Made by a program: the position numbers and the translations under genes
Shown: piece after piece, positions 1,707-62,928 of the stretch
Numbering within the stretch: the stretch's first letter is position 1
Layout of the letters: the number at the start of each line of letters is the position of its first letter
From: Oscillospiraceae bacterium
GTDB taxonomy: Bacteria; Bacillota; Clostridia; Oscillospirales; Acutalibacteraceae
Reading direction: 5' to 3'
Assembly (NCBI GenBank): GCA_902788995.1
Contig: CADAMO010000001.1
Coordinates: 8,746 to 72,745 of the forward strand
DNA: 64,000 nt
Notes under the pieces: generated by a model
What the model was told of the DNA's origin: nothing
Databases searched by the model: none
The model's input: only the letters and a program-made list of their open reading frames with translations

Positions 1707-3167
1707 ATGCTGTTTAATTCATTAAGCTTTCTGATCTTCTTCCCGGTGGTGACAATTGTATATTTTCTGTTGCCGCAGAAGGTCAGATGGGCGTTCCTGC
1801 TGGCAGCCAGCTATTTCTTTTACATGTGCTGGAACGCCTCGTATGCGTTATTGCTGCTGGCTTCTACAGTTATCACCTACGCGGCCGCGCTGCTGATCGA
1901 CCGCAGCGAAAAGCCCTCTGCCAAAAAAGCGTTTCTGGCAGTCAGCCTGATTGTCAACCTCGGGATCCTCTTTACTTTCAAATATTTTGAGTTCTTCACC
2001 TCCGGTCTTTACGCCGCGCTGGATTGGCTGAAAATCGCCTACACGCCGGTCAATTATTCGTTGCTGCTGCCGGTGGGCATTTCTTTCTACACGTTCCAGG
2101 CGCTGGGGTACGCGGTGGACGTCTATCGCGGCGACGTGGCTGTGCAGAAGCACTTCGGGAAATACGCCCTGTTTGTCGCATTCTTTCCGCAGCTGGTGGC
2201 CGGCCCCATCGAGCGCAGCCGGAATCTGCTGTCCCAATTTGATGAAGAGCACCGGTTTGATTATGAAAACGCTGTCACCGGTCTTCGTCTGATGTTGTGG
2301 GGATTTTACAAGAAGATCGTGGTGGCCGATACCGTCTGCGTGGCGGTCAATACGGTCTACAACAACCTTCACGCCTTTGACGGCTTTGCGATCTGCATCG
2401 CCACGTTCTTATTCTCCATCCAGATCTTCTGTGATTTCTCCGGTTACAGCGATATTGCCCGGGGCTGCGCGAGGATCATGGGCTTCCGGCTGATGCGCAA
2501 TTTCGATCACCCCTATTTCTCCCACTCCATTCAGGAGTTTTGGCGCAAGTGGCATATCTCCCTGTCCACCTGGTTCCGGGATTATATCTACATCCCGCTG
2601 GGCGGTAATCGCAAAGGAAAGGCGCGTCAGTTGCTCAATCTGATGATCACCTTTCTTGTCTCCGGATTATGGCACGGGGCGGATATCACCTTCGTCATCT
2701 GGGGCGGTCTGCACGGATTGTATCAGATCGTCGGCAAGCTGACCAAGCCCGTCCGGGACCGTTTGCTGCCAAAGCGGGAAGGAAGCCTGTTCCATCGTCT
2801 GCACGGCTTGTGGCAAATGCTCTTTACCTTTGCGCTTGTCTGGTTTGCGTGGATCTTCTTCCGCGCCAACAGTGTGCAGGACGCCCTCTATGCGGTGACG
2901 CATCTGTTTGACTGGCAGCAGATCACCGCCTCCTATCTGTTTACCGACCTGAAAATGGTGTTCGGCACCCGGGCGGAGTTTTACCGCCTGCTGGCGACAT
3001 TGCCGCTGTTTCTGCTCGTCTCTTTGGTTGACAGATACCGCTCTCTCAGCCGGATCGTCTCGAAGCAGAAGCCCGTTCTGCGTCTGGTGTTTTATGTCGT
3101 TGTCGTTGTCTATATTCTTTTGTTTGCCCGCGCGGAGCTGCAGGATTTTATCTATTTTCAGTTCTGA
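1707..3167 (+). CDS. MBOAT family O-acyltransferase (AlgI/DltB-like)
   Basis: ATG at 1707 lies 2 nt after the upstream stop. Polytopic protein with the MBOAT signature FWRKWHISLSTWFRDYIYIPLGGN. The listed ORF start at 1641 overlaps the upstream gene and is unlikely. Confidence 0.9.
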   Translation: MLFNSLSFLIFFPVVTIVYFLLPQKVRWAFLLAASYFFYMCWNASYALLLLASTVITYAAALLIDRSEKPSAKKAFLAVSLIVNLGILFTFKYFEFFTSGLYAALDWLKIAYTPVNYSLLLPVGISFYTFQALGYAVDVYRGDVAVQKHFGKYALFVAFFPQLVAGPIERSRNLLSQFDEEHRFDYENAVTGLRLMLWGFYKKIVVADTVCVAVNTVYNNLHAFDGFAICIATFLFSIQIFCDFSGYSDIARGCARIMGFRLMRNFDHPYFSHSIQEFWRKWHISLSTWFRDYIYIPLGGNRKGKARQLLNLMITFLVSGLWHGADITFVIWGGLHGLYQIVGKLTKPVRDRLLPKREGSLFHRLHGLWQMLFTFALVWFAWIFFRANSVQDALYAVTHLFDWQQITASYLFTDLKMVFGTRAEFYRLLATLPLFLLVSLVDRYRSLSRIVSKQKPVLRLVFYVVVVVYILLFARAELQDFIYFQF

Positions 3168-3218
3168 TCCGCGGGTGAAAGTCCGAGCGTTATGTTCATG
3201 AAAGGAGGTCTGCCGTTC

Positions 3219-4301
3219 ATGGCGAAAAATAAGTTGCTGACGTTTATCGGAAAGCTGTCTGCCGTTGTTCTTTCGGCGGGCCTGCTGATCGGTGTGCTCA
3301 ACCGGTTTTACGTCAACGGATATTATTACAGGGACGTATACAGTGAGATCGATAAGATGTACGATGTCCCCTATGGCATTCAGATGGTCAACCTCGGCAC
3401 CAGCCACGGCCTTGCCTCATTTCAATATCCGGAGGACGGCGTGACGCGGTATAATCTGGCGCTGTCCGGTGAGGATATCTACCACGATTTTGCAACGCTC
3501 AAACAGTTTGCCGATCATCTGGCGCCGGGATGCATCGTCGCGCTTCCCACGTCTTACTTTTCATTCTGTATGTCCACGGAGGAACCGTCGCAAAAGCGTT
3601 ACTACGCCTATCTGGACCGGGAGTACCTCAGAGGTTTCAGCTATGAGACGCTGATCAACGCGAAATATCTGCCGGTCCTGCGCAGCGGGGAATTCATCAT
3701 CAAGGACCTGATCAAGGATCAGGAGCTGGACGTCGGCGCAGCCATGATGGACGAGGACATGGAAGCGCCGGAATCGGACGTTGAGGCGCTGTCTTCTGAT
3801 GCTTTCGCTGAGTCGGCGGTCCCTGTCGATTCGTCCGATACTGCGGCGCTGAACGATCTTGCGCAGGATTATGCGCTGACGGATCAGGAAAAGCTGGAGA
3901 AAAACGCAGAACTGGTCTCCCACGCCGCCGGACGGGTGGAAAGCTGGCGCTCCGGCTATATGACGGCGGGACGGCGGTATATTGCGGAAAACACACGGAT
4001 CCTGACCGAAATGGTTCAATTCTGTTATGAGAACGGTTTCCGGCCGCTGCTGGTCACTACGCCGATTTACAAGGCGCTGAATGACAATTTCAGTGAGGAA
4101 GAGCTGCGCGTCTGTTATTTCGACCCGATGCGTGAAGTGGCGCAGAAAACCGGCGTCCCTTATCTGGATCTTTCCCATGACGCGGTTTTGTCCGCCACGC
4201 CGGATTACTACGGTAACAGCGACCACATGAACCGCTACGGCGCGGCGGCGTTCTATGAAGTATATACTGCCTATCTGAAAACGATCGGTTATCTGAATTG
4301 A
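3219..4301 (+). CDS. Membrane-anchored DltD/AlgJ-like (SGNH-like) acyltransferase partner of the MBOAT
   Basis: GGAGG at 3204-3208 lies 10 nt before ATG 3219. N-terminal TM anchor, NLGTSHG and C-terminal NSDHMN motifs, and position directly after an MBOAT gene. Family assignment is inferred, not searched. Confidence 0.55.
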   Translation: MAKNKLLTFIGKLSAVVLSAGLLIGVLNRFYVNGYYYRDVYSEIDKMYDVPYGIQMVNLGTSHGLASFQYPEDGVTRYNLALSGEDIYHDFATLKQFADHLAPGCIVALPTSYFSFCMSTEEPSQKRYYAYLDREYLRGFSYETLINAKYLPVLRSGEFIIKDLIKDQELDVGAAMMDEDMEAPESDVEALSSDAFAESAVPVDSSDTAALNDLAQDYALTDQEKLEKNAELVSHAAGRVESWRSGYMTAGRRYIAENTRILTEMVQFCYENGFRPLLVTTPIYKALNDNFSEEELRVCYFDPMREVAQKTGVPYLDLSHDAVLSATPDYYGNSDHMNRYGAAAFYEVYTAYLKTIGYLN

Positions 4302-7917: not shown

Positions 7918-9495
7918 ATGAGGCAGCTTTGCGGCCGCTATCAAATCGACAAGAAGGAATACCGGGATGATTCGTCAGGCGTTTACTGCTTTTCCGACGA
8001 CGCCTGCGAGCTGTGGGTGTTCGGCCGCTGTTTTACCGGTGAGGACGCCAACGACGGAGCGGCGCTTGCCGCGTTGTTCGCCCAGTACGGCGACCGGATG
8101 ACGGAGCATCTGAACGGCGCCTATCTGACCGTCTTTTTCCGTAAAGAAGACAAGTCTTTGCACGTGTTTCATGACCGGGCCACTTCGCCCGTGGCGCTGT
8201 ATTATACGGAAACCGACGGCTGTCTGTATCTCAGTACGTCGCTGAAAACGCTGTTGGCGGAATCAAAAATCGAGCGGAAACTGAACGAAGGCGTGATCGA
8301 GGAATTCCTCGTCAACGGATATCTTTACGGCGGCGATACGCTGGTAGATGGCGTTCATAAAATAAAAGCGTACCATTGCCTTGTTGCTGACGGAGACGGC
8401 GTGCGGCAGCTGCCTGTTTCGTACCCCTTTACGGAAATCGGAAAAGGCGAAGCCCTGGAACAGTTCAAGCCCGTTCTTGACCGTTCCATTGAAAGGAATC
8501 TGGAAGGTCTGGAGGACGTGAGCTTCCCGCTGTCCAGCGGCTACGATTCCAACTATATCGCCTACGTGACGACAGCGCTGGCGAAAAAGCCCGCCACAGC
8601 CTTTTCCATCGGCGGGCGGCACGGCAAAAACGAACTTCCCATTGTGGAAAAGAACGTGCCCTATTACAACAACCTGACGCTTCGTTCCGCCCTGACGGAC
8701 GACGATTCTCTCCGTCATTTTCCGGATATCGTCTGGCGTCTGGAGGGCAACGTCTATGAAAGCGGCCTGTTTTTGCAGTATGAGCTGATGAAGCTGGTGA
8801 CGGAAACCGGAAAAAAGAGCCTGATCTGCGGCGAAGTGGCGGATCAGGTGATGAACCTCAACTACCTCCGGGAGGACCGGATTCATCCGGCGCCCGGGAA
8901 AAACGGTCCGCGATACTATGAGTTCAGCGAATATCCCTACATTTTCAGCAGCTATCTGATCCTGAAAAAGAGCGGCATCCTTGCCAATTCCTTTGGGATC
9001 GAAGCGCGTTACCCCTATCTGGACGAGCCCCTGATCTCCGTCTGCGCGGCGCTGAAGGAGATCAGCCGCAAGGACAAGCGGGTCCACGTGGCCAACTGCC
9101 ATGAATGCCTGCCGCCGGAGGTGACCGCCAACATGAGTAAGGTGGGCGGTTCCACGGAGTTCCATTCTTTGTTCAACTCCGAGCAGGAGATCAAGGCGTT
9201 TTTCGCCGCTGTCGAACGGACCGATTTCTTCCAAAAGCATCTGCCTTTGATCAAAAAATATTCTTATGAGGAATCCCAGAAGCAAACGGGCATTACACTG
9301 CTGAAAACGAAGGTGCGCAACGCGGCGTTCACGTTGCTTCACATAAAGCGCGATACTTATTTTAACGAGGAAATGAAGCTGAGGGAGTACCTGTCCGTCG
9401 CCTATCTGATCCTGTTTGAAAAGCTGTTTATCAAAGGGCAGCCGGATTTCTCGGCGCTCTCCTGCGACCTGTCGTTTGCGGACCTGCTCCGCTGA
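7918..9495 (+). CDS. Asparagine synthase-like amidotransferase/ATP pyrophosphatase
   Basis: AsnB-like length and layout, with a PP-loop-like FPLSSGYDSNY motif. The N-terminus is MRQLCGRY, so the Cys is not at position 2. Confidence 0.7.
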   Translation: MRQLCGRYQIDKKEYRDDSSGVYCFSDDACELWVFGRCFTGEDANDGAALAALFAQYGDRMTEHLNGAYLTVFFRKEDKSLHVFHDRATSPVALYYTETDGCLYLSTSLKTLLAESKIERKLNEGVIEEFLVNGYLYGGDTLVDGVHKIKAYHCLVADGDGVRQLPVSYPFTEIGKGEALEQFKPVLDRSIERNLEGLEDVSFPLSSGYDSNYIAYVTTALAKKPATAFSIGGRHGKNELPIVEKNVPYYNNLTLRSALTDDDSLRHFPDIVWRLEGNVYESGLFLQYELMKLVTETGKKSLICGEVADQVMNLNYLREDRIHPAPGKNGPRYYEFSEYPYIFSSYLILKKSGILANSFGIEARYPYLDEPLISVCAALKEISRKDKRVHVANCHECLPPEVTANMSKVGGSTEFHSLFNSEQEIKAFFAAVERTDFFQKHLPLIKKYSYEESQKQTGITLLKTKVRNAAFTLLHIKRDTYFNEEMKLREYLSVAYLILFEKLFIKGQPDFSALSCDLSFADLLR

Positions 9496-26568: not shown

Positions 26569-28089
26569 ATGATGATAATGCGATATATGAAAAAACTGAC
26601 GGCGCTGCTGCTGTGCGCCGCGCTGCTGTTTGCCTGCTGTGTGCCGGCCTTCGCAGCGGATGCGCTGCCCGAGAGCGAGCACGACTATGCGAACAATCTG
26701 GAACAGCGTTGGGAGTACACCTATCCCGGCGAAGTCAAGGGCCTGTTCGTCACCTTTTCAGCGGATACGTGGGTGGAGGAGTACAGCGGATGGATCCGGA
26801 TCGACGACATCGTGGAGAACGGTGCGGTCACCGTCGGCGGCATGGAAAAGAACATCATTTTCCCCACGCTGAAAACCGGCGACGTGATCGTGATCTACGG
26901 TGAGAACGAACAGTACGTGGGCAGCTACCGGGGCGGCTCGCTGGCCGGCAAGACGGTTTTTGTGCCCGGCAGGTCTTTCTCCGTGGTGCTGATCACCGAC
27001 GGCTCGGTCACCGGCTACGGCTTCCGGGTGACGGCGGTGGAGCCCTGTCCGGACGACTACGTCCGGGAGATCACCTTCTGCCCCGGCGAAGGGCTCGAGC
27101 CGGTCACCGAAATCTTCACGGCGGATCAGACCGTGTATTTTGACGACCGGTATTATCAGCGCGACGGCCTTGCCTTCGTCGGCTGGTCCGCTGCTGAAAA
27201 CGGTCCTGTCGCCTTTGACGCCGACGGGGAAACCGTCGCCGCCGAGGTGCCCGCCACGCTTTACGGCGTGTGGGTCCCGCTGGCGCTGGGACGGGAGGAG
27301 GTCTTCTCCTTCTATAATTCAAGCTGGTATTTTGACGTGGACGATCAGGACCACTACTATATGACCGCGGAGGATTACCGCGCCATGCAGGAAAACCTGT
27401 TCAAAAACTTCGGCGTCGGACCCTATCCCACCCCCGTGGTCTCCATCGTGCTGGCAACCTACCGGGACTGGGATTTCGCCGGGTCCTGCTACGGCATGTC
27501 GGTGGTGACGGCGCTGCAGCACTACGGGCTGATCGATATCCTGCCCATGCAGAACGCCGCCTGCATGAACGACATGCAGCCGGACGAGGCGCTGATCAGC
27601 CTCATCAACTATTACCAGACCCAGACGGCCACCAGCTTTCCGGCGGAAAACAAGGCGCTGGTCAAGGGTTCGCCCAACATGCGCCAGCAGTTCCGCGACC
27701 TGTACCGCACCGTATCCGGGGGAAACATCGTGATCCTGACCTACTTCCGCGAGGGCATGAAGGAGATCACCGAGGCGCACGTGATCCTGCTGACGGGCTG
27801 CTACACCACGGCGGAGGGCGATCTGGCGTTTATCGTTTACGACTGCAACTCCGGCGACTATGAATCCGGCTGGTATGACGAGGTGTTCCGCGTGCCGGCG
27901 GGCGGCGACGCGGCGGTCTACGACGGCGACGTCATTGACGCGTTTTTCTGGACCGACGATTTCAGCCGCTTCCAATCCTTTGATATCAATAAAAAAGGCA
28001 CCCCGCTGGCGTGGTACCTTTCCTACTTCCGGCACGTGATCGAGGTGCTGGTCTCGTTTTTCCGGATGCTGAGCAATATCGGGAAATGA
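26569..28089 (+). CDS. Secreted protein with Listeria-Bacteroides-type repeat and a papain-like Cys/His motif
   Basis: Signal peptide ..CCVPAFA/ADA. FVGWSAAENGPVAFDADGETV repeat. FAGSCYGMSVV .. EAHVILLTGCY .. YDCNSGD resembles a Cys-His-Asp/Asn peptidase core. Start could be 26572 or 26578. Confidence 0.6.
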   Translation: MMIMRYMKKLTALLLCAALLFACCVPAFAADALPESEHDYANNLEQRWEYTYPGEVKGLFVTFSADTWVEEYSGWIRIDDIVENGAVTVGGMEKNIIFPTLKTGDVIVIYGENEQYVGSYRGGSLAGKTVFVPGRSFSVVLITDGSVTGYGFRVTAVEPCPDDYVREITFCPGEGLEPVTEIFTADQTVYFDDRYYQRDGLAFVGWSAAENGPVAFDADGETVAAEVPATLYGVWVPLALGREEVFSFYNSSWYFDVDDQDHYYMTAEDYRAMQENLFKNFGVGPYPTPVVSIVLATYRDWDFAGSCYGMSVVTALQHYGLIDILPMQNAACMNDMQPDEALISLINYYQTQTATSFPAENKALVKGSPNMRQQFRDLYRTVSGGNIVILTYFREGMKEITEAHVILLTGCYTTAEGDLAFIVYDCNSGDYESGWYDEVFRVPAGGDAAVYDGDVIDAFFWTDDFSRFQSFDINKKGTPLAWYLSYFRHVIEVLVSFFRMLSNIGK

Positions 28090-28094
28090 GAAAA

Positions 28095-28129
28095 GATGAA
28101 AGATGAAAGATGAGAGATGAGAGATGAGA
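28095..28129. repeat. Heptad array, left arm of cassette I1
   Basis: GATGAAA GATGAAA GATGAGA GATGAGA GATGAGA, five tandem 7-mers starting 6 nt after the stop at 28087-89. Confidence 0.9.
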
Positions 28130-28131
28130 GC

Positions 28132-28217
28132 CGGAGCGCGGGTCTCCAGTGGAGACCTCTGCCGAAGGCAGAAGCGTCGACCGAGGCGGCAGCCGAGACC
28201 CTGCGGCCGGCGTTTTA
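28132..28217 (+). repeat. Conserved structured element R1, copy B (with closing stem)
   Basis: Core 28138-28200 is 59/63 identical to copy A. GCCGG..GCG..GGGTCTC at the 5' end can pair with GAGACCC..GCG..CCGGC at the 3' end. A GNRA hairpin ATGGGC-GAAA-GCCCAT follows at 28226-28241. Confidence 0.7.
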
Positions 28218-28246
28218 TAATGGGTATGGGCGAAAGCCCATCCGTT

Positions 28247-28279
28247 TTTCATCATTCCGCTTTCATCTTTCCTCTTTCG
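28247..28279. repeat. Heptad array, right arm of cassette I1
   Basis: TTTCATC ATTCCGC TTTCATC TTTCCTC TTTCG.., complementary in register to the left arm (12-nt perfect GAAAGATGAAAG match). It ends at the tcdA stop codon. Confidence 0.85.
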
Positions 28280-28987
28280 TTAACGTCCGATCAGGGCGTT
28301 GACCACATACTCCGCGATGCGCAGGCCTGCGGCGGAGGGAATAAAACTGATGCTGGACGGGGGCGTTTTGCCTCCGTCTTCTTTGATATCGTACTGCGGC
28401 GGCGCCGGGGGATCGGGGGAGTAGAGCACCGTGACCTTTTTCAGCCCCGCCTCTTTATATTTCCGGCGCATCACCCGGCACAGGGGGCAGTATTCCGTCT
28501 GGTTGATGTCGGCGATGCGGAAGCCGTCGGACCGCAGCTTCCGGCCCGTGCCCATGGCGGCGATCAGCGGAACGTTCTCCGCCGCGCATTTCACCGCGAT
28601 GGCGGTCTTGGCCCTCGTGTCGTCGATGGCGTCCACACAGAAGTCGTAGGACCCTTCAAAAAAGCCGTCAACGTTTTCCGGCGTCACAAAGGCGGCCGCC
28701 GTGCGCACGGCGCAGTCCGGGGCGATGTCCAGCACCCTGGCGGCGGCCACGTCGGTTTTGTGCTGCCCTACGGTGGAATGCAGCGCGTAGAGCTGCCGGT
28801 TGATGTTGGAGAGGGCCACCGTGTCGCCGTCCACCAGCGTCAGCGCGCCCACGCCCGCCCGGGCCAGCGCCTCCACCACGTAGGAGCCTACGCCCCCCAG
28901 ACCGAAGACGATCACGCGGGCGCGCAGCAGCTTGTTCAGATTGTCCTCGCCCAGCAGGGCGGCGGTGCGGCGGTGTTCCTCTTTCAT
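28280..28987 (-). CDS. tcdA: tRNA threonylcarbamoyladenosine dehydratase (ThiF/E1-like)
   Basis: RVIVFGLGGVGSYVVEALARAGVGALTLVDGDTVALSNINRQ and the TcdA/CsdL-like length. Confidence 0.85.
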   Translation of the reverse strand: MKEEHRRTAALLGEDNLNKLLRARVIVFGLGGVGSYVVEALARAGVGALTLVDGDTVALSNINRQLYALHSTVGQHKTDVAAARVLDIAPDCAVRTAAAFVTPENVDGFFEGSYDFCVDAIDDTRAKTAIAVKCAAENVPLIAAMGTGRKLRSDGFRIADINQTEYCPLCRVMRRKYKEAGLKKVTVLYSPDPPAPPQYDIKEDGGKTPPSSISFIPSAAGLRIAEYVVNALIGR

Positions 28988-35683: not shown

Positions 35684-35702
35684 CGCGGCACTTCAGTGCC
35701 GC
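35680..35702 (+). repeat. Solo REP-like unit
   Basis: GTAGCGCGGCACTTCAGTGCCGC, one mismatch to the left unit of the five doublets. Overlaps the SDR stop codon. Confidence 0.85.
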
Positions 35703-35737
35703 TTCAGTGGGAAGTCGTCAGTCGGAAGTCGGTAGTC
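35703..35737. repeat. Heptad array, left arm of cassette I2
   Basis: TTCAGTG GGAAGTC GTCAGTC GGAAGTC GGTAGTC. Confidence 0.85.
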
Positions 35738-35863
35738 TGCAAACCGATTCCCCGTTCTGATGAATAAGTCCGCTGAACGAAAGAAGTTGAGCATGAGCCA
35801 TTGAAAATCACAGTCGGAAAGATACTATTCCGTTACGGATGAGATACGGAGTTTGCCCATAGG

Positions 35864-35891
35864 GACTTCCGACTTCCGACTGATGACTGAC
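35864..35891. repeat. Heptad array, right arm of cassette I2
   Basis: GACTTCC GACTTCC GACTGAT GACTGAC. Its reverse complement matches the left arm in register (about 23/28). Confidence 0.85.
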
Positions 35892-35914
35892 AACTATACA
35901 AGAGGGGGAGACAA

Positions 35915-36718: not shown

Positions 36719-37386
36719 AAAAGACAAAACGGGAAAAAACCTATTTTGACAGCGTCCATCTCTGGGGCAGGCTTTGGAGCATCGGCGCGCTGATCGCGCT
36801 GCTGATGGTGCCTACCGCCATCTGCGCCCACTTCAACGCCTGGCCGAAGCTAACGGAGATCATGGTTCCCATCGGCAAGGTGATGCTGCTGAACTGGACC
36901 GTCGCCGTGGTGGAGGTTATCGCCTATACGCCCATGCTGGGCGCGGGCGGCACCTACCTGAGCTTTGTGACGGGCAACATCGTCAACCTGAAGCTTCCCT
37001 GCGGCCTCAACGCCATGGCCAAGGCCAACGTGAAGGCCAATACGGAGGAGGGCGAGGTTATTTCCACCCTTGCCATCGGCGCTTCCGCCATCACCACCAC
37101 GCTGGTCATCGCCGCGGGCGTCCTCCTGCTGGGCCCTGCCGTCAGCGTTCTGAAAAACAACCCGGTGGCGGCCCCCGCCTTCGGCTACGTGCTGCCGGCG
37201 CTGTTCGGCGCGCTGGGCGCGGGCTATTTCCGCAAGAATATCGCGGTCTCCCTTGTGACCATCGCGGCGGGCGTCATCACCCTGCTGTTCTCCCCCTCGC
37301 TTGGCGTGGGCACGCTGATTTTCGTCACCATTGTGGTGTCCATCGGCAGCGCGCTGGGCATGTTCAAGCTGGGCTGGATCAAATGA
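36715..37386 (+). CDS. Polytopic membrane protein, coupled to the preceding gene
   Basis: ATG 36715 overlaps the upstream stop (ATGA). Hydrophobic, Gly/Ala-rich helices. Confidence 0.7.
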   Translation: MKKTKREKTYFDSVHLWGRLWSIGALIALLMVPTAICAHFNAWPKLTEIMVPIGKVMLLNWTVAVVEVIAYTPMLGAGGTYLSFVTGNIVNLKLPCGLNAMAKANVKANTEEGEVISTLAIGASAITTTLVIAAGVLLLGPAVSVLKNNPVAAPAFGYVLPALFGALGAGYFRKNIAVSLVTIAAGVITLLFSPSLGVGTLIFVTIVVSIGSALGMFKLGWIK

Positions 37387-37389
37387 CAG

Positions 37390-37424
37390 GCAATAGGCAG
37401 TAGGCAATAGGCAATAGGCAATAG
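37390..37424. repeat. Solo heptad array I3
   Basis: GCAATAG GCAGTAG GCAATAG GCAATAG GCAATAG, starting 4 nt after the stop at 37384-86. No complementary arm seen nearby. Confidence 0.9.
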
Positions 37425-37472
37425 GGATGTGCCGTCTTGCTGTTGCCGGCGTTTCAATAGCTACGCGTTGCG

Positions 37473-42172: not shown

Positions 42173-42323
42173 GGTAGCGCGGCACCTCAGTGCCGCTGTT
42201 TACTGAAGTATCATTCAGGAAACCGGAAGAATGAGGAAAAAACCGTATTTTCCGGGAGGCGTATATTGTTCAGGAGATAAAACAGTTGTTGACGTCAAGC
42301 GCGGCACTGAGGCGCCGCGATAC
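42173..42323 (+). repeat. REPIN-like doublet M1
   Basis: Left unit GGTAGCGCGGCACCTCAGTGCCGC. Right unit GCGGCACTGAGGCGCCGCGATAC (2 mismatches). AAACAGTTGTT lies 10 nt before the right unit. Confidence 0.85.
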
Positions 42324-45219: not shown

Positions 45220-45364
45220 GGTAGCGCGGCACCTCAGTGCCGCTATTTGCCAATGAAATATTGTTGAATTAGAAAATCAGAGGAAGCATCGTTTTACAGG
45301 ATGCTGTTTTTTTTGATCTGAAACAGTTGTTGTTGCATGAGCGGCACTGAGGTGCCGCGCTACC
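45220..45364 (+). repeat. REPIN-like doublet M2
   Basis: Perfect 24-nt inverted units at both ends. Interior holds a plus-strand terminator-like hairpin AGCATC/GATGCT plus T8 (45285-45314). AAACAGTTGTT lies 9 nt before the right unit. Ends 4 nt from the kinase stop. Confidence 0.9.
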
Positions 45365-46976: not shown

Positions 46977-47131
46977 GGTAGCGCGGCACCTCAGTGCCGC
47001 TGACGATAGATGTAACTGCTATACAGGTTATCGTTTGGAACCGGCAGCTTTAAACTCACGGTCTGCCAGAGGGGGACAATGCGTAAAACAGATTGTTATT
47101 GCCAGAAGCGGCACTGAGGTGCCCCGCTACC
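46977..47131 (+). repeat. REPIN-like doublet M3
   Basis: Left unit perfect. Right unit GCGGCACTGAGGTGCCCCGCTACC (1 mismatch). AAACAGATTGTT lies 10 nt before the right unit. Ends 5 nt from the recR stop. Confidence 0.9.
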
Positions 47132-48096: not shown

Positions 48097-50109
48097 TTAC
48101 TCTACTTTGATATTGTATTTCCTGCCGAGCGTTTCCAGCGCGGCTTCACTGACGTATTTGGAGAGATAGGCGGGGTTGATAAAGGTCTTGATCTTGTTTT
48201 CCCCCAGCCGGATGAGGATGGTGTTGCCCGCGATGGAGGCGGTGGAATCCGTCAGCTGGCCGATCAGCGGGGCGAACCGCTTTTCCGTGCCGAGGATGAT
48301 CTGCATCCACGTGCGGCCGTCGATGGGCGTCGCCGTGGGCTCATCCGTCAGCACCTGCGTCTGCGGGGCGGCGGAGGGTCCGCCTGCCGCATCGAAGGGG
48401 AGCGGTACCGTGGCGTCCCCGGCCTGCGGGCTTCCGGCGTGTTCCTGCATAAAGGCGTCAAAGTCAAATCCGTCGTCCGGGGGGGGCGGCGGGTTGCTGC
48501 CGGCGGAGGACCCGCTTCCGGCGTGTTCGCTCATGAACGCGTCAAAATCAAAGGGCTCGTCGTCCGTCTCTTCCGTTCCGGCGGCGGCGAATCTGTCCGC
48601 AAAGCTGCCGGAGGAGGGGCGGTCAGCGGCGAAACCGGAGAAGGAGGGTCGCTGTTCACGGCTGTCGCGTTTTGGCGTCGGAACGGTCGCTTCCCCGAAA
48701 GGCTCGTCCGGCGGCGGCGCGTCGTCAAAGGGCGGTGCGTCGTCAAAGGGGGGCGCCTCGTCGAAGGGCGGTATATCGTCAAAGGGGGGCGCGTCGTCGG
48801 AAAAAAGCGGAATCGTCGCGTCGTTTTCGGAGAGTTCCGCCGGTGCGGCGACGGGGGCGGGGGCCGGCTTTGGCGGGGCGGCCTGCTGCCGCGGCGAGGG
48901 CGTTTCAACGGGCGTTTGAGCAACGGGCGTTTCGGCGGGGGAGAAGGCGACCGCGCCGCTTTTCAGCCGGGCGATCTCTTTTTCCAGCGCGGCCACCCTT
49001 GCGGTCAGCGCGGTGACGGAAACGTCGGTCTCCGGGCGGCACAGGCGGATCAGCGCCATTTCCGCCTCAATGCGGCGGTTCTGGGTGCGGCGGATGGCCT
49101 CCGACGCGGCGGCCAGCACGCCCAGCGCGTACAGCACGTATTCCTGGGTAAACGCTGCGGCGGAGGTTTTGATCCGCTCCAGCTCTTCGGCGGTGCAGAC
49201 GATCAGGTTCTCCGGGTGGGCCACCGTCTTCACGATCAGAAAACTGCGGAACCGGTCGATCAGCTCCACGCAGAGGCGCTCCGTATCGCAGGAGGCCTTG
49301 TGCAGCTCGTCTAAAATGGAAAGGCACCGGGCCGTGTCCTTGGCGGCGACGGCGTCCATCAGGTCGTAAATATATTCGCGGTTCATCAGACCCGCGGAGG
49401 AGGAGACCACGTCCACGGTCACGTCGTTTGCCACGGAAAGGCAGCGGTCCAGCAGCGAGAGCGCGTCCCGCATACCGCCGTCCGCAATGCGGGCGATCAG
49501 CACCGCCGCGTCGTAATCCAGCGACGCGTTTTCCGCCTTGGCGATCTCCACCAGCCGGTCCGCGATGCAGGCGGGCTCGATCCGGCGGAAGTCAAACCGC
49601 TGGCAGCGGGAGAGGATCGTGGAGGGGAGCTTGTGCACCTCGGTGGTGGCCAGAATGAACTTCACGTGCTCCGGCGGCTCTTCCAGCGTTTTCAGCAGCG
49701 CGTTGAAGGCCGCAATGGAGAGCATGTGGACTTCGTCGATGATATAGACCCGGTAGGTGGCCTGGGAGGGGGTGAAGTTGACCTCGTCCCGCAGCAGGCG
49801 GATATCGTCCACACCGTTGTTGCTGGCGGCGTCGATCTCCACGATATCCAGCACGGAGCCGTTGTCGATGCCGCGGCAGATCTCGCACTCGTTGCAGGGG
49901 TCGCCGTTCACCGGGTGCAGGCAGTTGACCGCCTTGGCGAATATTTTCGCGCAGGTGGTTTTGCCCGTCCCCCGCGAACCCGTGAACAGGTAGGCGTGGG
50001 CCAGGCGGTTTTCCCGGATCTGATAGGAGAGTGTCTTGGTGACCTGGGGCTGGCCGATCACGTCGGCAAACACCTGCGGCCGCCATTTACGGTAGAGGAC
50101 GCGGTACAA
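48097..50109 (-). CDS. dnaX: DNA polymerase III subunit gamma/tau
   Basis: TTG start. LYRKWRPQVF, GSRGTGKTT (Walker A), zinc module CLHPVNGDPCNECEICRGI. Long low-complexity linker with internal repeats. Confidence 0.93.
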   Translation of the reverse strand: MYRVLYRKWRPQVFADVIGQPQVTKTLSYQIRENRLAHAYLFTGSRGTGKTTCAKIFAKAVNCLHPVNGDPCNECEICRGIDNGSVLDIVEIDAASNNGVDDIRLLRDEVNFTPSQATYRVYIIDEVHMLSIAAFNALLKTLEEPPEHVKFILATTEVHKLPSTILSRCQRFDFRRIEPACIADRLVEIAKAENASLDYDAAVLIARIADGGMRDALSLLDRCLSVANDVTVDVVSSSAGLMNREYIYDLMDAVAAKDTARCLSILDELHKASCDTERLCVELIDRFRSFLIVKTVAHPENLIVCTAEELERIKTSAAAFTQEYVLYALGVLAAASEAIRRTQNRRIEAEMALIRLCRPETDVSVTALTARVAALEKEIARLKSGAVAFSPAETPVAQTPVETPSPRQQAAPPKPAPAPVAAPAELSENDATIPLFSDDAPPFDDIPPFDEAPPFDDAPPFDDAPPPDEPFGEATVPTPKRDSREQRPSFSGFAADRPSSGSFADRFAAAGTEETDDEPFDFDAFMSEHAGSGSSAGSNPPPPPDDGFDFDAFMQEHAGSPQAGDATVPLPFDAAGGPSAAPQTQVLTDEPTATPIDGRTWMQIILGTEKRFAPLIGQLTDSTASIAGNTILIRLGENKIKTFINPAYLSKYVSEAALETLGRKYNIKVE

Positions 50110-50148
50110 GGCGGGACAGTCCTTTCTGTGGGGAGGAAGTTTTTTCCT

Positions 50149-50183
50149 GAAAGTTGAAAGTTGAAAGATAAAAGTTGAAAGTC
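50149..50183. repeat. Solo heptad array I4
   Basis: GAAAGTT GAAAGTT GAAAGAT AAAAGTT GAAAGTC, 40 nt upstream of the dnaX start. No convincing complementary arm. Confidence 0.9.
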
Positions 50184-50374: not shown

Positions 50375-50403
50375 AAAATTCAAGTCTTTTTCACTTGGTA
50401 ATC

Positions 50404-50432
50404 ATTATACTACTTTTCCTGTGGTTTGGCAA
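50404..50432 (-). promoter_or_regulatory. Sigma-A promoter of the SRP RNA gene
   Basis: Minus strand TTGCCA (50432-27), 17-nt spacer, TATAAT (50409-04). Confidence 0.65.
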
Positions 50433-50592
50433 GTATTTTTTTAACCTTTATTTTATTTATTTTATTTTATTTTATCCCGGAGGATTGCGCGATTTGAATC
50501 AATACGTTGAAAAATGTCGAGACCCCGCAGCACGCAGCCTCAGCTGCGTTTTCAACGCAAGTGTTTCTTCGCGTATCACGCGCCTTGCGTCG

Positions 50593-50756
50593 TTACTGCT
50601 CCACCAATTAATACTTGAAGATTTCTGCTTGTCTAAACGCCGCAATACGGCGTCAGAAATCCTCGACAGGGGACAGCCTGTCTTGCGGTTTCTTCCTTGT
50701 CTTGCGACGTTTATCCGGCGCATAAATGATTCACGATTAAATTGGTGGAGCAGTAA
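50593..50756. repeat. 17-bp perfect inverted repeat enclosing about 130 nt of hairpin-rich sequence
   Basis: TTACTGCTCCACCAATT (50593-50609) / AATTGGTGGAGCAGTAA (50740-50756), extendable to 20 bp with one bulge. Confidence 0.8.
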
Positions 50757-50780
50757 ATCGGAACTGCGCTGTAACACTAT

Positions 50781-50817
50781 GAAAAAAGAAAAAAGCCGAA
50801 AGGCGAACCCTCGGCTT
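50781..50817 (-). terminator. rpmB intrinsic terminator
   Basis: Minus strand AAGCCGA-GGGUUCGCCUU-UCGGCUU followed by UUUUCUUUUUUC. Confidence 0.8.
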
Positions 50818-50841
50818 ATATTCTTCGTTCTGTTGATCGGA

Positions 50842-51030
50842 TCAGACCGCTCTGGTGACCTTACCGGAACGCAGGCAGCGTGTGCAGGCATAAACTCTGC
50901 AGGGGGAGCCGTTGACGATCGCCTTGACTCTCTTCACGTTGGGCTTCCAGGTTCTGTTGGATCTTCTGTGGGAATGGGAAACCTTGATACCGAACTTCAC
51001 GTCTTTTCCGCAAAAATCGCATTTTGCCAT
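50842..51030 (-). CDS. rpmB: 50S ribosomal protein L28
   Basis: MAKCDFCGKDVKFGIKVSHSHRRSNRTWKPNVKRV.. Confidence 0.93.
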   Translation of the reverse strand: MAKCDFCGKDVKFGIKVSHSHRRSNRTWKPNVKRVKAIVNGSPCRVYACTRCLRSGKVTRAV

Positions 51031-51078
51031 TTGGAGCGCACCTCCTTTGATTACTGGACTAATAAATCAGCAGAAAAC

Positions 51079-51107
51079 ATAATAACAGATTCCCGCCGTA
51101 ATTGCAA
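51079..51107 (-). promoter_or_regulatory. Sigma-A promoter of rpmB with A-rich UP-like tract
   Basis: Minus strand TTGCAA (51107-02), 17-nt spacer, TATTAT (51084-79). Preceded by an A-rich run (plus-strand T-runs 51111-51146). Confidence 0.65.
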
Positions 51108-51157
51108 GCTTTTTTTTGATTTTTTTGGTTTTTTTTCGTTTTTTCTGCGTTGCGCCC

Positions 51158-52396
51158 TCATGAAAGCCGGTGGATGAACAATCCGCTGAGCAGCTTCGGC
51201 TCAAACCACGTGGATTTCGGGGGCATGATCTCGCCCGCGTCCGCAATGGCCATCAGCTCGTCGAGGGAGGTGGGGTACATGGAAAAGGCGAGAACCATAT
51301 CCTCCCGGCAGCGCTTTTCCAGCTCTGAAAGGCCACGGATGCCGCCCACGAAGTCGATGCGCTTGTCCGTTCTCGGGTCACCGATGCCGAAGATCGGCTC
51401 GTTGACCAGCTTTTGCAGCAGGGAAACGTCAAGGCTGCCCACCGCGTCGGATTCGTCGGCAAGGCCCTCTTTGAGCGTCAGGGCGTACCACTGCTCTTTG
51501 TAGAACATACCGAAGGTGTGGCGGGCGGCGGGCTTCACCGGCTTATCGCTCTTTTCCATGGCGAACACTTCGCCCAGCCTGCCGAACAGCGCTTCGTCGG
51601 AAAGGCCGTTCGTGTCCTTCAGCAGGCGGTTGTAGTCGAGGATCTTCAGCTCGTCCGCGCGGAAGTACACCGCCAGAAAGAAGTTGAACTCCTCTTCCCC
51701 CGTATAGCCGGGGTTGGCCGCGCGGCGTTTCAGCGCCACCTTGACGGCGGAGGCCGCCCGGTGGTGGCCGTCGGCGATATAGAGGGATTCCACCGCCCGG
51801 AAACCGTCTGTCACGGCGGCGATGTCGGCCGCGTCGTCGATAACCCATACGGTGTTTTGCACGTTTCCTTCGCTGACGAAGTCGTACTCCGGCGCAAGGG
51901 CGGTCACTTTGTCGATCACCGCGTCAATGACGCCGCTGCGGCGATAGGCCAGAAAGATGGGGCCGGTGTTGGCGTCGCAGGTATCCACGTGGCGGATCCG
52001 GTCCTCCTCCTTGTCGGCACGGGTCAGCTCGTGGCGCTTGATAACGCCGTTCAGGTAGTCGTCCACGGAGGCGCAGCCCACGATGCCCGTCTGGCACACG
52101 CCGTTCCACTGCTGGCGGTAGATATACAGCTTCGGCACGTCCTCTGTTAAGCAGACGCCCTCGTCGGAGAGCTTTTGCAGGTTTTCCGCCGCCTTGGCGT
52201 AGACCGCGTCGGAGTAAAGATCGACGCCCTCCGGCAGATCGACCTCGGCCTTATCCACGTGGATGAAGGACAGGGGATTGCCTTGCACCTTGACCCGCGC
52301 CTCGGCGGAATTCATGACGTCGTAGGGCAGCGCCGCCACCTGCGCGGCGTATTCTTTTTTCGGGCGCACGGCCCGAAAAGCGCGAATGATAGACAT
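51158..52396 (-). CDS. DUF1015 domain protein
   Basis: MSIIRAFRAVRPKKEYAAQVAALPYDVM.. N-terminus and about 410 aa length typical of DUF1015. Confidence 0.8.
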   Translation of the reverse strand: MSIIRAFRAVRPKKEYAAQVAALPYDVMNSAEARVKVQGNPLSFIHVDKAEVDLPEGVDLYSDAVYAKAAENLQKLSDEGVCLTEDVPKLYIYRQQWNGVCQTGIVGCASVDDYLNGVIKRHELTRADKEEDRIRHVDTCDANTGPIFLAYRRSGVIDAVIDKVTALAPEYDFVSEGNVQNTVWVIDDAADIAAVTDGFRAVESLYIADGHHRAASAVKVALKRRAANPGYTGEEEFNFFLAVYFRADELKILDYNRLLKDTNGLSDEALFGRLGEVFAMEKSDKPVKPAARHTFGMFYKEQWYALTLKEGLADESDAVGSLDVSLLQKLVNEPIFGIGDPRTDKRIDFVGGIRGLSELEKRCREDMVLAFSMYPTSLDELMAIADAGEIMPPKSTWFEPKLLSGLFIHRLS

Positions 52397-52426
52397 GGGG
52401 TAAGTCTCCTTTTCGGTAAATGTTAA

Positions 52427-52460
52427 AATGCGGAATTCGGAATGAGGAATTCGGAATTAT
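52427..52460. repeat. Heptad array, left arm of cassette I5
   Basis: AATGCGG AATTCGG AATGAGG AATTCGG AATTAT. Contains the stop codon (52457-59) of the enclosed gene. Confidence 0.92.
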
Positions 52461-52804
52461 TTAGGTTGCGTTTTTGTGATAGAAGTCAATAATTTGATAA
52501 GCTCTTCGCAATTATAATACAGTGGTTCAAACGTTGATTTGTCAATGAAATCGCTTTCATACAGGAGTTCAAGCCAATAGGCAGTTTCATCTGCTTCTTT
52601 TAGTGCAATATTCATTTTTGAATAAAAGTCAGGTTTGCTTTGCCCTCTTTGCGCTTCACGGATATTTGCGCCGATGCTTGTGCCGCTTCGCAAAATCTGC
52701 TTTGATAATACGAATTCGTGTTCAACGCATAAATATCGGTATAAACGGATAATCTGAAGGGCAAACGCTTTGCTTTTATCTCTGACTGCATTATTGTAGA
52801 TCAT
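52457..52804 (-). CDS. Four-helix-bundle protein (23S rRNA intervening-sequence protein / Avd family)
   Basis: KSKAFALQIIRLYRYL..LSKQILRSGTSIGANIREAQRGQSKPDFYSKMNIALKEADETAYWLELL, the hallmark of this family. 21 G+C in the 60-nt line at 52501. Confidence 0.88.
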   Translation of the reverse strand: MIYNNAVRDKSKAFALQIIRLYRYLCVEHEFVLSKQILRSGTSIGANIREAQRGQSKPDFYSKMNIALKEADETAYWLELLYESDFIDKSTFEPLYYNCEELIKLLTSITKTQPK

Positions 52805-52823
52805 TTCAGACCCTTCCCTCTCA

Positions 52824-52857
52824 ATAATTCCGCATTCCGCATTCCGAATTCCGCATT
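52824..52857. repeat. Heptad array, right arm of cassette I5
   Basis: Reverse complement reads AATGCGG AATTCGG AATGCGG AATGCGG AATTAT, 32/34 identical to the left arm. Confidence 0.92.
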
Positions 52858-52865
52858 AAAAAGGC

Positions 52866-54464
52866 TTACGATTTTGTCGCTTCCCCGAAATACAGCTGAT
52901 CCCCTCCACGGTAATCGACGCCTGAAACGCCCTTGGTGCAGACGAAATAGGTGCTTTCATTCCACACCGGCAGCATGAACACGTCGGAGGCCAGCAGGTT
53001 TTCCAGCGAGCGGTAGCAGGCCGCGAATTTCACGTTGTCGCCGGAATACAGGGTGTTGACCAGCAGGTTGGCGGTGGCGGAGGCGTAATGGGCGAAGTTG
53101 TCGCCGGAATAGGAGGTGAACGCGCCGAAATAATCGTAGGTGCTGAAGGTTTCCGCCTTGACCGGGTAGAAGGCGATCTGATAGCTGCCGGAGGCGACGG
53201 CATCCCGCAGCTCCTGAGCGGTGACGGCGCTGATGTTGACCGAAACCGTCACGCCCAACAGCTTCTGCCACTCCTGCAGCAGCTTGCGCATCGCGTCCGC
53301 GTGCTGCTCCTCGCACAGCAGCGTCAGCTCCACGGAGGTTTTGTCCAGCGCTTCCAGCGCCTTTTGCAGGTAGTCGTAGACTTTTTCCTCATTGTAAAGA
53401 TTCGGATGGGACCCCACCAGCCCGCTGGCGGCGCTTTCCGGGGCGTAACCGGCGTTCAAGGTCTTTCCCGCGTTGGCGGCAATGGCGGCGGTATCCGTGG
53501 CGCTGGCCAGCGCCTTGCGCAGGTCCGCGTTGGAAAGGGCCGGGTCGTCAAGGTTGAACACCAGACTGCGCAGCAGGTTGCGGTTCTCTTTCACCGTAAA
53601 GCCCTTCCTGACGCGCAGCCTGCCGTATTCCTCCGCGGTCAGCGCCGCGCAGGAGTATTCGCTGTCCGCCAGATCCTTGAGCAGGTTGTTCCGGTCGGCC
53701 ACGTAATAATACCACAGATAGTCCGCGTTGCCCGGGTGTTCCCCGTGATAGTCGGGGTTCCGGTTCAACCGGTAGGAGTTCTCGTCGAAGCGGGAGAGAT
53801 AATAGGGCCCGTTGGACAGGATAAACTTGATATAGGTGCCGTACCGGCCGATGCAGGCGTTGAAGAAGACCTCGCTGCAGGGCATGGCGGCAGGTTCCGC
53901 CAGCACGGTCAGAAAGTTGCTCTGCCGCCGCGTCAGGTTGATCTGCAGGGTGTGGGCGTCAATGGCGTAAACGCCCAGGGTCTCCGGCGCGGCTTTGCTC
54001 TGGTGAATGGCTTCGGCGTTGACGACGTTCATGAACCGGAAGGCGTCGGGGGAGCCCATGGCGGGGTCCACCGCCCGGCGCAGGGCAAACTCAAAATCAT
54101 AGGCCGTGACGGTCAGCGGAAAATTGTCCGGCAGGCGGCTTTCCAACTGTTCCTGCGCGTTGCTGGTCAGGTGCCACGCCGCGTCGGGGCGCAGCGTGAA
54201 AAAGTAGGTGAGCCCGTCGGGGCTGACCGTCCAGGAGGAGGCCACGCCCGGGGCGACGCTGCCGTCGGCTGCCACGGTGACAAGGCCCTCATAGCAGCCG
54301 CGGACGATCATCCTTCCCGTCTCGTCTGAGACGATCTGGGGATCGAAGCCCTTGGCCGGGGCGTCCACCGCGGCGTAAAAGATCAGATCGCCCTTGCCGG
54401 AGCAGGCCGTCAGCCCCGTCAGCAGCAGGGCGGCGATCAGCAATATGGAAATGCGTTGTTTCAT
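52866..54464 (-). CDS. Family 5 solute-binding lipoprotein (peptide/oligosaccharide type)
   Basis: ATG 54464 (MKQRISILLIAALLLTGLTACSG lipobox). SBP_bac_5-like length. The listed start at 54566 overlaps the upstream gene. Confidence 0.8.
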   Translation of the reverse strand: MKQRISILLIAALLLTGLTACSGKGDLIFYAAVDAPAKGFDPQIVSDETGRMIVRGCYEGLVTVAADGSVAPGVASSWTVSPDGLTYFFTLRPDAAWHLTSNAQEQLESRLPDNFPLTVTAYDFEFALRRAVDPAMGSPDAFRFMNVVNAEAIHQSKAAPETLGVYAIDAHTLQINLTRRQSNFLTVLAEPAAMPCSEVFFNACIGRYGTYIKFILSNGPYYLSRFDENSYRLNRNPDYHGEHPGNADYLWYYYVADRNNLLKDLADSEYSCAALTAEEYGRLRVRKGFTVKENRNLLRSLVFNLDDPALSNADLRKALASATDTAAIAANAGKTLNAGYAPESAASGLVGSHPNLYNEEKVYDYLQKALEALDKTSVELTLLCEEQHADAMRKLLQEWQKLLGVTVSVNISAVTAQELRDAVASGSYQIAFYPVKAETFSTYDYFGAFTSYSGDNFAHYASATANLLVNTLYSGDNVKFAACYRSLENLLASDVFMLPVWNESTYFVCTKGVSGVDYRGGDQLYFGEATKS

Positions 54465-57138: not shown

Positions 57139-57289
57139 GTAGCGCGGCACCTCAGTGCCGCTCTTGACAAATGTAGCTTTTGAAACGGATTTTGGAATTA
57201 TCTGCCGTTTTCTCTTACATAATGAGCGTTAAGGCAACTATTTATAATAGTTGTTTGTGCTTATAGCGGCACTGAGGTGCCGCGCTACC
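57139..57289 (+). repeat. REPIN-like doublet M4
   Basis: GTAGCGCGGCACCTCAGTGCCGC .. AATAGTTGTT-N10-GCGGCACTGAGGTGCCGCGCTACC. Confidence 0.9.
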
Positions 57290-62777: not shown

Positions 62778-62928
62778 GTAGCGCGGCACCTCAGTGCCGC
62801 TATTCGCCGGAGTTGCATTTCGGTAATCTGAAAGATAGGGATCATCGTTGTATTATCAGCGAAACCCTTGTTTTCAGTTCACAAAACAGTTGTTTGCGTT
62901 CCGAGCGGCACTGAGGTGCCGCGCTACC
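62778..62928 (+). repeat. REPIN-like doublet M5
   Basis: GTAGCGCGGCACCTCAGTGCCGC .. AAACAGTTGTT-N10-GCGGCACTGAGGTGCCGCGCTACC. Confidence 0.9.

Follow-up and report, generated by a model that had tools for sequence, protein, structure and literature searches.

The purpose of the open reading frames (ORFs) in rRNA intervening sequences (IVSs), and of the 'S23/IVS' proteins that they encode, has been a puzzle since the early 1990s, and the short tandemly repeated repetitive (STRR) heptamers were first described in 1990. Here we analyze a 431-bp cassette within a 64,000-nucleotide stretch of DNA from an Oscillospiraceae bacterium (the window; positions 8,746 to 72,745 of contig CADAMO010000001.1, assembly GCA_902788995.1). 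The cassette carries a gene for a four-helix-bundle (4HB) protein of the PF05635 family between two inverted arms of 35-38 nt built of 7-nt units (heptads). It is best filed as an ORF-bearing IVS, a type known from rRNA that is encountered here in mRNA and, at other loci, in a tmRNA precursor. Comparison of homologous loci ties the PF05635 family to the bacterial heptamer repeats through a physical coupling across many phyla.

The 23S rRNA IVS of Coxiella burnetii is 428 nt long and encodes the PF05635 protein S23p (PMC4990558). Its terminal inverted repeats pair into a 28-bp stem, the 5' arm of which contains two or three tandem GACAGAT heptamers, depending on the strain. RNase III cuts this IVS in vitro, with the mapped 5' end at the start of the first heptamer, and the ORF has been reported to be decaying and probably untranslated (PMC4990558).

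Intergenic tandem 7-nt units, typically in 2-6 copies, are known from cyanobacteria (STRR), Xanthomonas (GGGAATC) and Beggiatoaceae (TAACTGA). They lie near the point where the upstream ORF ends or immediately ahead of starts, often between co-directional genes (PMC4692102, PMC4679880, bioRxiv 10.1101/2022.06.06.494920). The GGGAATC repeats of Xanthomonas were published as quadruplex-forming, with 70-75 convergent (inverted) pairs per genome (PMC4692102). The papers on the heptamers of Xanthomonas/Nostoc, of Beggiatoaceae and of Nostoc recF/recO consider a G-quadruplex or regulatory role and an 'unidentified interacting partner' (PMC4692102, PMC4679880, bioRxiv 10.1101/2022.06.06.494920), and none of them ties the repeats to PF05635 genes or rRNA IVSs. 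In the literature that we covered, which was incomplete so that an earlier description is possible, PF05635 genes with heptad arms were found for the Coxiella rRNA IVS alone.

The cassette and its insertion site

The cassette lies on the minus strand at 52427..52857 and comprises, in gene sense, a 5' arm, a ribosome-binding site (RBS), the 4HB ORF and a 3' arm. The 5' arm (52820..52857, minus strand), AATGCGG AATTCGG AATGCGG AATGCGG AATT..., has about 4.4 heptads and begins 8 nt past the stop codon of the upstream gene. The 3' arm (52427..52464, minus strand), ...AATTCCG AATTCCT CATTCCG AATTCCG CATT, has about 4.6 heptads and ends 15 nt before the RBS of the downstream gene. As an earlier reading of the sequence (the original prediction) had stated, it holds the stop codon of the ORF (52457-52459). 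That prediction had given 32 complementary positions over a 34-nt span, a count that was confirmed; an inverted-repeat search extended the arms to 38 nt each, 92% complementary and separated by 355 nt. Tandem Repeats Finder assigned them a period of 7, with 4.6 and 4.4 copies. The motif AATKCGGAATKCGG, with at most one mismatch, matched the 64-kb window six times (0.21 expected), every time within the arms, which agrees with their description as tandem 7-mers.

The single gene between the arms (52457..52804, minus strand) encodes a protein of 115 amino acids, and its predicted membership in the four-helix-bundle family was borne out by profile matches to PF05635 (E 3e-30, 104.9 bits, cut-off 33.8) and TIGR02436 (E 1e-33, 115.6 bits, cut-off 24). 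PF05635 was the sole Pfam match; neither a nuclease nor a transposase domain was recognized in the bundle, and PADLOC and PHROGs gave no match to the protein. An AlphaFold2 model (pLDDT 92.9) has four helices and resembles PDB entries 2RLD (TM 0.93, range 0.89-0.95) and 2GSC (TM 0.80-0.84), which contain five chains apiece. It also resembles structures of Avd, a protein of diversity-generating retroelements (DGRs), with TM 0.75-0.80 for 4DWL and chains of 8UB7/8UBE. The earlier assignment to an 'Avd family' holds for the fold, but not for the sequence (BLASTP E = 1.1 against bAvd, the Avd of phage BPP-1), and bAvd does not have heptad arms. A purine-rich, Shine-Dalgarno-like stretch, GAGAGGGAAGGG, at 52811..52822 (minus strand), 6 nt upstream of the ATG and at the inner edge of the 5' arm, is the putative RBS.

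The upstream host gene encodes an SBP_bac_5 solute-binding protein (SBP; 52866..54464, minus strand; 532 aa as called in near-identical contigs), and the downstream one a DUF1015 protein (51158..52396, minus strand; RBS AAGGAG at 52406-52411). The 4HB ORF runs in the same direction as both. The cassette takes up 431 of the 469 nt between the DUF1015 start (52396) and the SBP stop (52866), in agreement with the prediction that it fills most of a co-directional spacer. Its AT-richness was likewise evident (GC 0.39 vs 0.60 in the flanks; ranges 0.36-0.40 vs ~0.60-0.65). No rRNA was found in the window, and the cassette sits between two protein-coding genes, so that it lies outside the 23S and 16S rRNA in which IVSs are by definition located. 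An Rfam search of the window returned SRP RNA alone at the gathering threshold, and nothing in 52300-52950 at E <= 1. Neither a terminator nor, on the coding strand, a promoter-like site was found that would belong to the cassette itself; counts did not exceed those in shuffled sequences. When the sense RNA was folded computationally, the arms formed the closing stem in both the minimum-free-energy and the centroid structure (-141.7 kcal/mol, z = -7.6). The stem-plus-ORF anatomy of rRNA IVSs, which the original prediction had recognized here, matches the Coxiella IVS in stem and heptamers. A Pfam scan of the 4HB ORF and of 32 larger proteins from across the window found no reverse transcriptase, transposase or integrase, as had been predicted; several of these proteins had no Pfam match at all, and the scan did not extend to smaller ORFs.

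Compared with sister species, the cassette is an insertion, and the site is polymorphic among relatives. A protein identical to the 4HB protein was present in 22 metagenome contigs, in nearly all of them in the SBP-4HB-DUF1015 context. A related species (locus L011, 84% DNA identity) has a 91%-identical protein at the orthologous site; its 5' arm has three heptads, that of the window four, and the arms of L005 and L007 are shorter. Empty sites were sought in relatives and found, with spacers of 22-59 nt. Among L101, L102 and L104, gene-free spacers of 44, 22 and 59 nt go with DUF1015 proteins that are 86%, 80% and 77% identical, respectively. Two copies of TTTTGAG, separated by 14 nt, lie in the 59-nt spacer of L104 and could be a footprint. 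In L099/L100 (DUF1015 90% identical), the SBP-DUF1015 spacer is occupied at 2850-3000 by an ORF-less 150-nt hairpin of the type AGTCGGA/AGTCATC ... CACGACT/TACGACT.

The 4HB ORF is under strong purifying selection. Between the window and L011 (52457-52804 vs 3001-3348), dN/dS was 0.042, and other orthologous pairs gave 0.05-0.13. The dN of the 4HB gene (0.041) was lower than that of DUF1015 (0.073) and SBP (0.154), and its dS was 0.98, compared to 0.43-0.69 for the flanking genes. GC at third codon positions (GC3) was 0.36 in the window organism and 0.40 in L011 for the cassette, vs 0.83-0.86 for the flanks. The suggestion that the cassette is 'selfish' sits uneasily with a dN/dS of 0.04, below that of the flanking housekeeping genes, and with retention in the window organism and L011 and between accB and accC of Xanthomonas and Dyella.

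We also note a contig (L006, ENA ERZ27280503 k141_966778) with a 99.8%-identical cassette at 2943-3369 and a different left flank, a PASTA kinase gene and a gene for a 572-aa protein. On its right side, the end of the SBP gene is inverted and joined via a shortened hybrid arm, with the crossover within the arms. Several of the short contigs with a 91% homologue (L015-L018) stop inside or just past the 3' arm; heptad arms thus seem prone to assembly breaks. Two origins are conceivable for L006: a second copy that recombined through its arms or, given how often contigs break there, an assembly chimera. An invertible switch, considered for L006, was not adopted: no recombinase was found, there is one such contig, and assembly breaks are common at the arms.

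Homologous loci in other bacteria

A scan of one genome per species yielded 80 homologous loci with proteins 53-73% identical, mostly from rumen or gut metagenome-assembled genomes. They belong to Clostridia (Acutalibacteraceae, Oscillospiraceae), Bacteroidales, Thermoguttaceae (Planctomycetota), Treponema, Fibrobacter, Cloacimonadales and Syntrophomonas. Heptad-built inverted arms were present in ~90% of ~100 homologous loci, with a heptad that varied by lineage and arms that were complementary. The cassette, thought at first to be a single curiosity, therefore shares its architecture with ~100 loci. Further arm-flanked copies were sought, and an inverted repeat with a score of at least 13 bracketed the gene in 76 of 81 loci; the median score of the bracketing repeat was 22, compared to 7 at random positions of the same loci (95th percentile 10). 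The arms had a period-7 self-identity of 0.7-1.0 and 33 consensus heptads, including AATTCGG, AATGCGT, AATTCAT, AATGCAC, AATTGAC, CATTGAC, AGTTCAT, CACTATC and AGTTGAA. Arm length was constrained, with a median of 4.6 heptads and a mode of 5 on both sides, clustering at 4-5 units. Mean GC was 0.35 in the cassettes and 0.48 in the flanks, and it was lower in the cassette in nearly all loci. The heptad-armed design is the general architecture of the PF05635 family outside rRNA.

Despite the turnover of the heptad between lineages, Watson-Crick pairs were found at 92% of 2288 arm positions. Pairing was locus-specific, with a mean score of 21.9 for arms of the same locus vs 9.9 when the 5' flank of one locus was combined with the 3' flank of another. 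Among the mismatches in sense orientation, G.U (25) and A.C (19) were less frequent than U.C (48) and G.A (40); the latter two dominate because heptad position 4 is polymorphic (G/T).

Across loci, protein identity was correlated with heptad similarity (Spearman -0.44; 0/500 permutations in a Mantel test), and the cassettes of Thermoguttaceae have the same AATTCGG/AATGCGG arms as the window cassette from Clostridia, suggesting that gene and arms move jointly, also between phyla. Several Prevotellaceae, several Acutalibacteraceae, and Xanthomonas together with Dyella have retained the cassette in the same context across related species and genera, which suggests that it persists once installed. 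Target-site features were sought without success: neither a target-site duplication nor a conserved insertion motif was found at ~60 cassette boundaries. The idea of a mobile cassette thus gains from the insertion relative to sister species and from similar gene-plus-arm units across phyla, but not from any target-site duplication or transposase.

The cassettes appear to be fitted closely into host transcripts. In at least 54 of the 63 loci with both neighbours callable, the cassette was co-directional with both neighbours, and at least two of the exceptions (the window and L011) are known mis-calls. In these 54, a median of 4 nt separates the upstream stop codon from the 5' arm at its outer end, and a median of 11 nt lies between the 3' arm and the following start; 35 loci were tight on both sides. 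Host contexts were mutually unrelated and included sugar uptake (the window), accBC, cas10-cmr3, helicase-methylase, and positions upstream of xisH and upstream of recF. None of 16 related loci tested had an rRNA context; tmRNA was found instead. In three Acutalibacteraceae loci (L026, L042 and L054; ~3340-3760), the 4HB cassette lies 10-15 nt upstream of the tmRNA gene, co-oriented with it, and is preceded by an ORF of 144-179 aa, probably smpB.

Distant homologues extended this picture. A tblastn search of plasmids gave 42 records, 23 of them from Nostoc, and plasmid homologues with 27-52% identity (cyanobacteria, Bernardetia, Chlorohelix) had inverted heptad arrays on both sides. The arms read AGTCGGA/GGTCGGA in Nostoc punctiforme, AGTGATT (11 copies) in Bernardetia and GGAGATA in Picosynechococcus, and that of Euhalothece is an STRR-like TGGTCAC run of ~13 units; the 4HB genes of Chlorohelix and Planktothrix are likewise bracketed by inverted heptad arrays. 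In Xanthomonas, the family member XCC0516 (PDB 2GSC) lies between accB and accC, as does its orthologue in Dyella, and both are flanked by GGGAATC-type heptads and their complements. Exceptions were a single Nostoc 7120 copy, with heptads on both sides that are non-complementary, and one 'Bacteriophage sp.' record without heptad arrays. Among viral-contig loci, 11 of 16 had heptad arms, and no reverse transcriptase was found near the armless viral-contig homologue L128.

In L111 (Picosynechococcus plasmid), L108 (Chlorohelix) and L109 (Planktothrix), armed 4HB genes are found between cas10/cmr2 and cmr3 or between genes for a helicase and an N6-methylase. Such insertions into CRISPR-Cas and restriction-modification loci may account for the appearance of 23S_rRNA_IVP in catalogues of cas-associated genes, without membership of the protein in those systems.

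Heptad arrays without a gene

Heptad arrays were not confined to the arms. In 388 kb around the 80 cassettes (cassettes excluded), tandem repeats of period 7 accounted for 103 rows, and periods 5, 6 and 8-11 for 1-5 rows each. Distinct free arrays numbered 64 and came from 27 of 74 loci; in 19 of these arrays, the heptad was identical to that of the local cassette. The mean distance between a free array and the heptad of its own cassette was 1.52, compared to 2.50 after permutation, and none of 1000 permutations was as low. About ten of the free arrays form ORF-less inverted pairs, 16-150 nt apart. No 4HB pseudogene remnants were detected in ORF-less hairpins when six-frame translations were searched with hmmsearch (all E > 1).

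The window itself contains four further heptad features, all at gene ends. An ORF-less, heptad-armed hairpin (35700..35893, plus strand; AGTCGGA/AGTCGTC ... GACTTCC/GACTGAT) lies between two co-directional genes and has the heptad type of the Nostoc punctiforme 4HB arms and of the L099/L100 spacer. An imperfectly complementary ORF-less pair, (AGATGAA/AGATGAG)x6 ... TTTCATC-type, at 28085..28283 (plus strand) begins at a stop codon. The remaining two are solo arrays: (AGGCAAT)x5.4 at 37386..37428 (plus strand), immediately past a TGA stop, and (TGAAAGT)x5 at 50148..50182 (strand not assigned), between the terminator of the SRP RNA and the dnaX start.

The window also holds a second, unrelated repeat family, which resembles repetitive extragenic palindromic (REP) sequences and the miniature transposable elements with inverted repeats known as MITEs. 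Its hairpin GTAGCGCGGCACCTCAGTGCCGC is paired with its reverse complement ~105 nt away at five intergenic sites (42179-42318, 45226-45358, 46983-47125, 57144-57283 and 62783-62922), and the pattern matched 12 times in the window vs 0.03 expected. A solo copy (35685-35702) lies directly against the 5' heptad arm of the ORF-less hairpin at 35700. Part of dnaX (48430-48800, minus strand), which codes for a 670-aa protein, contains tandem repeats of 18 and 36 nt and a duplication of 84 nt; they specify the linker of DnaX, which is rich in proline and aspartate (APPFDD-like). An AT-rich region (50395-51160; GC 0.41-0.53) surrounds the L28 gene rpmB, downstream of DUF1015 and upstream of the SRP RNA; it includes a TTTAT run (50447-50475) and, at 51110-51151, T-rich repeats of 9-10 nt. 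Gene content around rpmB varies between related strains, with DUF2442 and leucine-rich repeat genes in L007 and L011.

Interpretation and comparison with known systems

We think it rather probable that the element is an IVS-type cassette living in mRNA, with arms that pair as an RNA stem, insulating the insert and probably serving in its processing. Read-through from the host operon would transcribe the cassette. The arms would then pair into a dsRNA stem of ~35 bp that loops the insert out, and the upstream stop codon would stay beside the downstream start. Because the insert would be looped out, the cassette could be tolerated in essential operons and stable-RNA precursors. The strict orientation and position of the unit inside operons, including accBC and smpB-tmRNA, suggests a way to insert a gene into a polycistronic RNA that is left unbroken. 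RNase III may cut the stem, as in the Coxiella rRNA IVS, and release a stem-capped 4HB mini-mRNA. The 4HB protein is probably a pentamer like Avd, judging from the five chains in the two crystal structures, and would bind the heptad repeats in its own arms and in ORF-less hairpins; that the ~5 heptads per arm match the five crystal chains is suggestive only. Gene and arms would move as a unit and afterwards persist vertically.

Several observations weigh against this interpretation. The arm mismatches give no RNA signature, and the pairing data would therefore suit a DNA-level role of the arms equally well. The low GC3 of the cassette has been held across a species split with no drift to host composition, for which the model offers no explanation. 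The four other heptad features of the window carry heptads unlike those of the cassette, and the lack of 4HB remnants means that descent of ORF-less hairpins from cassettes stays conjecture. Cleavage by RNase III at the window locus is proposed by analogy only, and binding of the protein to heptads is pure inference.

A wider proposal is tentative, and the odds seem to us somewhat adverse to it. PF05635 proteins may be the missing trans-acting partner of intergenic heptamer repeats (STRR, GGGAATC and others), with an approximately pentameric bundle binding ~5 cognate heptads. The armed gene and the ORF-less hairpins would then be the 'autonomous' and 'non-autonomous' forms of one pan-bacterial, operon-resident class, and the rRNA IVS a special case that landed in rRNA. 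Two old puzzles, the rRNA IVS proteins and the makers or users of intergenic heptamers in cyanobacteria, xanthomonads and Bacteroidota, would merge into one testable problem, for which Xanthomonas, Bacteroides thetaiotaomicron and Nostoc are tractable hosts for direct tests.

The RNA stem may also be incidental. In REPIN-RAYT systems, the gene of a REP-associated tyrosine transposase (RAYT, an HUH/Y1 nuclease) is flanked by inverted REPs and is largely vertically inherited; the repeat is also dispersed as ORF-less intergenic inverted pairs, in a 'dialect' that is genome-specific. The cassette could be a mobile element of this type, with arms that act as terminal inverted repeats or hairpins; the 4HB protein, or an unlinked enzyme, would recognize them on DNA and disperse cassettes and ORF-less hairpins alike. 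The repeat that flanks the gene does recur, with the same heptad and in the same genome, in ORF-less inverted pairs, and the sister species show presence and absence as well as a different heptad hairpin in the identical spacer. The joint travel of gene and arms across phyla (-0.44, 0/500 permutations) is also consistent with such an element, as is the fact that the arms show no G.U excess, but co-orientation with transcription and the abutting stop codon and RBS are not expected if it acts purely on DNA. Neither a target-site duplication or conserved target at the ~60 boundaries nor a nuclease or transposase domain in the 115-aa bundle or the 32 other window proteins scanned was found, and copies stay at one locus across species and genera. 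L006, in which the cassette is joined to another left flank and an inverted SBP end by a crossover in the arms, fits a DNA element but may be an assembly chimera. We regard this explanation, the main rival, as unlikely.

That the 4HB protein is a non-mobile, resident regulator appears quite improbable. On this view it would be a factor of the host that binds RNA or DNA, with the heptad arrays, born in situ by replication slippage, as operators for autoregulation and for control of the neighbouring cistrons. In favour are purifying selection that exceeds that on the neighbouring genes, the retention of the gene within the essential accBC operon in both Xanthomonas and Dyella, the clustering of arm length at 4-5 units, and the protein partner and regulatory role proposed in the literature for Nostoc and Beggiatoa heptamers. 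Such a regulator is nevertheless difficult to reconcile with the foreign composition of the gene (GC3 0.36 vs 0.84), with empty orthologous sites in sister species and with homologues of 55-73% identity spread over unrelated phyla of one habitat. The unrelated operon contexts (sugar transport, accBC, cmr, restriction-modification, smpB-tmRNA) speak against a dedicated local regulator. Descent from the accessory gene (Avd) of a DGR, suggested by the TM of 0.75-0.80 to 4DWL and 8UB7/8UBE chains, is effectively refuted for the window locus, and we give it almost no credence. No reverse transcriptase was found among the 32 other window proteins scanned, and no direct repeats resembling template (TR) and variable (VR) repeats within +/-8 kb (44-61 kb of the window); sequence similarity to bAvd and heptad arms of bAvd are lacking.

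The likeness to Avd is one of fold and perhaps of assembly: both are four-helix bundles, and the five chains per crystal of the homologues 2RLD and 2GSC recall the Avd pentamer. Avd is moreover part of an RNA-protein complex (the DGR ribonucleoprotein 8UB7), which we count as a further likeness. Unlike bAvd, the 4HB protein has heptad arms around its gene, shares no sequence similarity with it and has no reverse transcriptase, TR or VR nearby. With REPIN-RAYT, the cassette shares a gene flanked by inverted repeat copies and a repeat that also occurs in ORF-less inverted pairs of the same genome. In contrast to RAYT, however, the 4HB protein has no recognizable catalytic domain and no HUH/Y1 nuclease, and its repeats are tandem heptads rather than a fixed REP palindrome, with a strong orientation bias to transcription.

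The Correia/nemis MITEs of Neisseria are co-transcribed inverted-repeat elements with TA target duplications, and RNase III cuts their RNA hairpins. The cassette is similar in being a small inverted-repeat element in an operon spacer, and the Correia stem provides an RNase III substrate outside rRNA; Correia elements differ in that they have no ORF and that their terminal repeats are of fixed sequence, not heptad arrays. Compared with MITEs in general, the cassette has the inverted termini, but no direct duplication or conserved target was seen at ~60 boundaries, and no transposase was found in the cassette or in the 32 other window proteins scanned. The intergenic heptamer repeats resemble the arms more directly, both being tandem 7-nt units in intergenic DNA beside ORF ends, and the GGGAATC units of Xanthomonas are the arms of the accB-accC 4HB cassette.

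The ORF-bearing rRNA IVSs differ from the cassette in their location, in helix 25 or 45 of rRNA, whereas the host transcript in the window is an mRNA operon spacer and elsewhere an smpB-tmRNA precursor. The window ORF also differs from that of the Coxiella IVS in having an RBS and in being under strong purifying selection. RNase III cleavage has been shown for the Coxiella IVS and would extend to the window cassette by analogy. The common features are nevertheless extensive. As in the 23S rRNA IVSs of Leptospira and Coxiella, a PF05635 ORF lies within a stem of ~28-35 bp formed by terminal inverted repeats, and as in Coxiella, the 5' arm consists of tandem heptamers with a copy number that varies between strains, in an element of nearly the same size (428 nt in Coxiella, 431 bp here).

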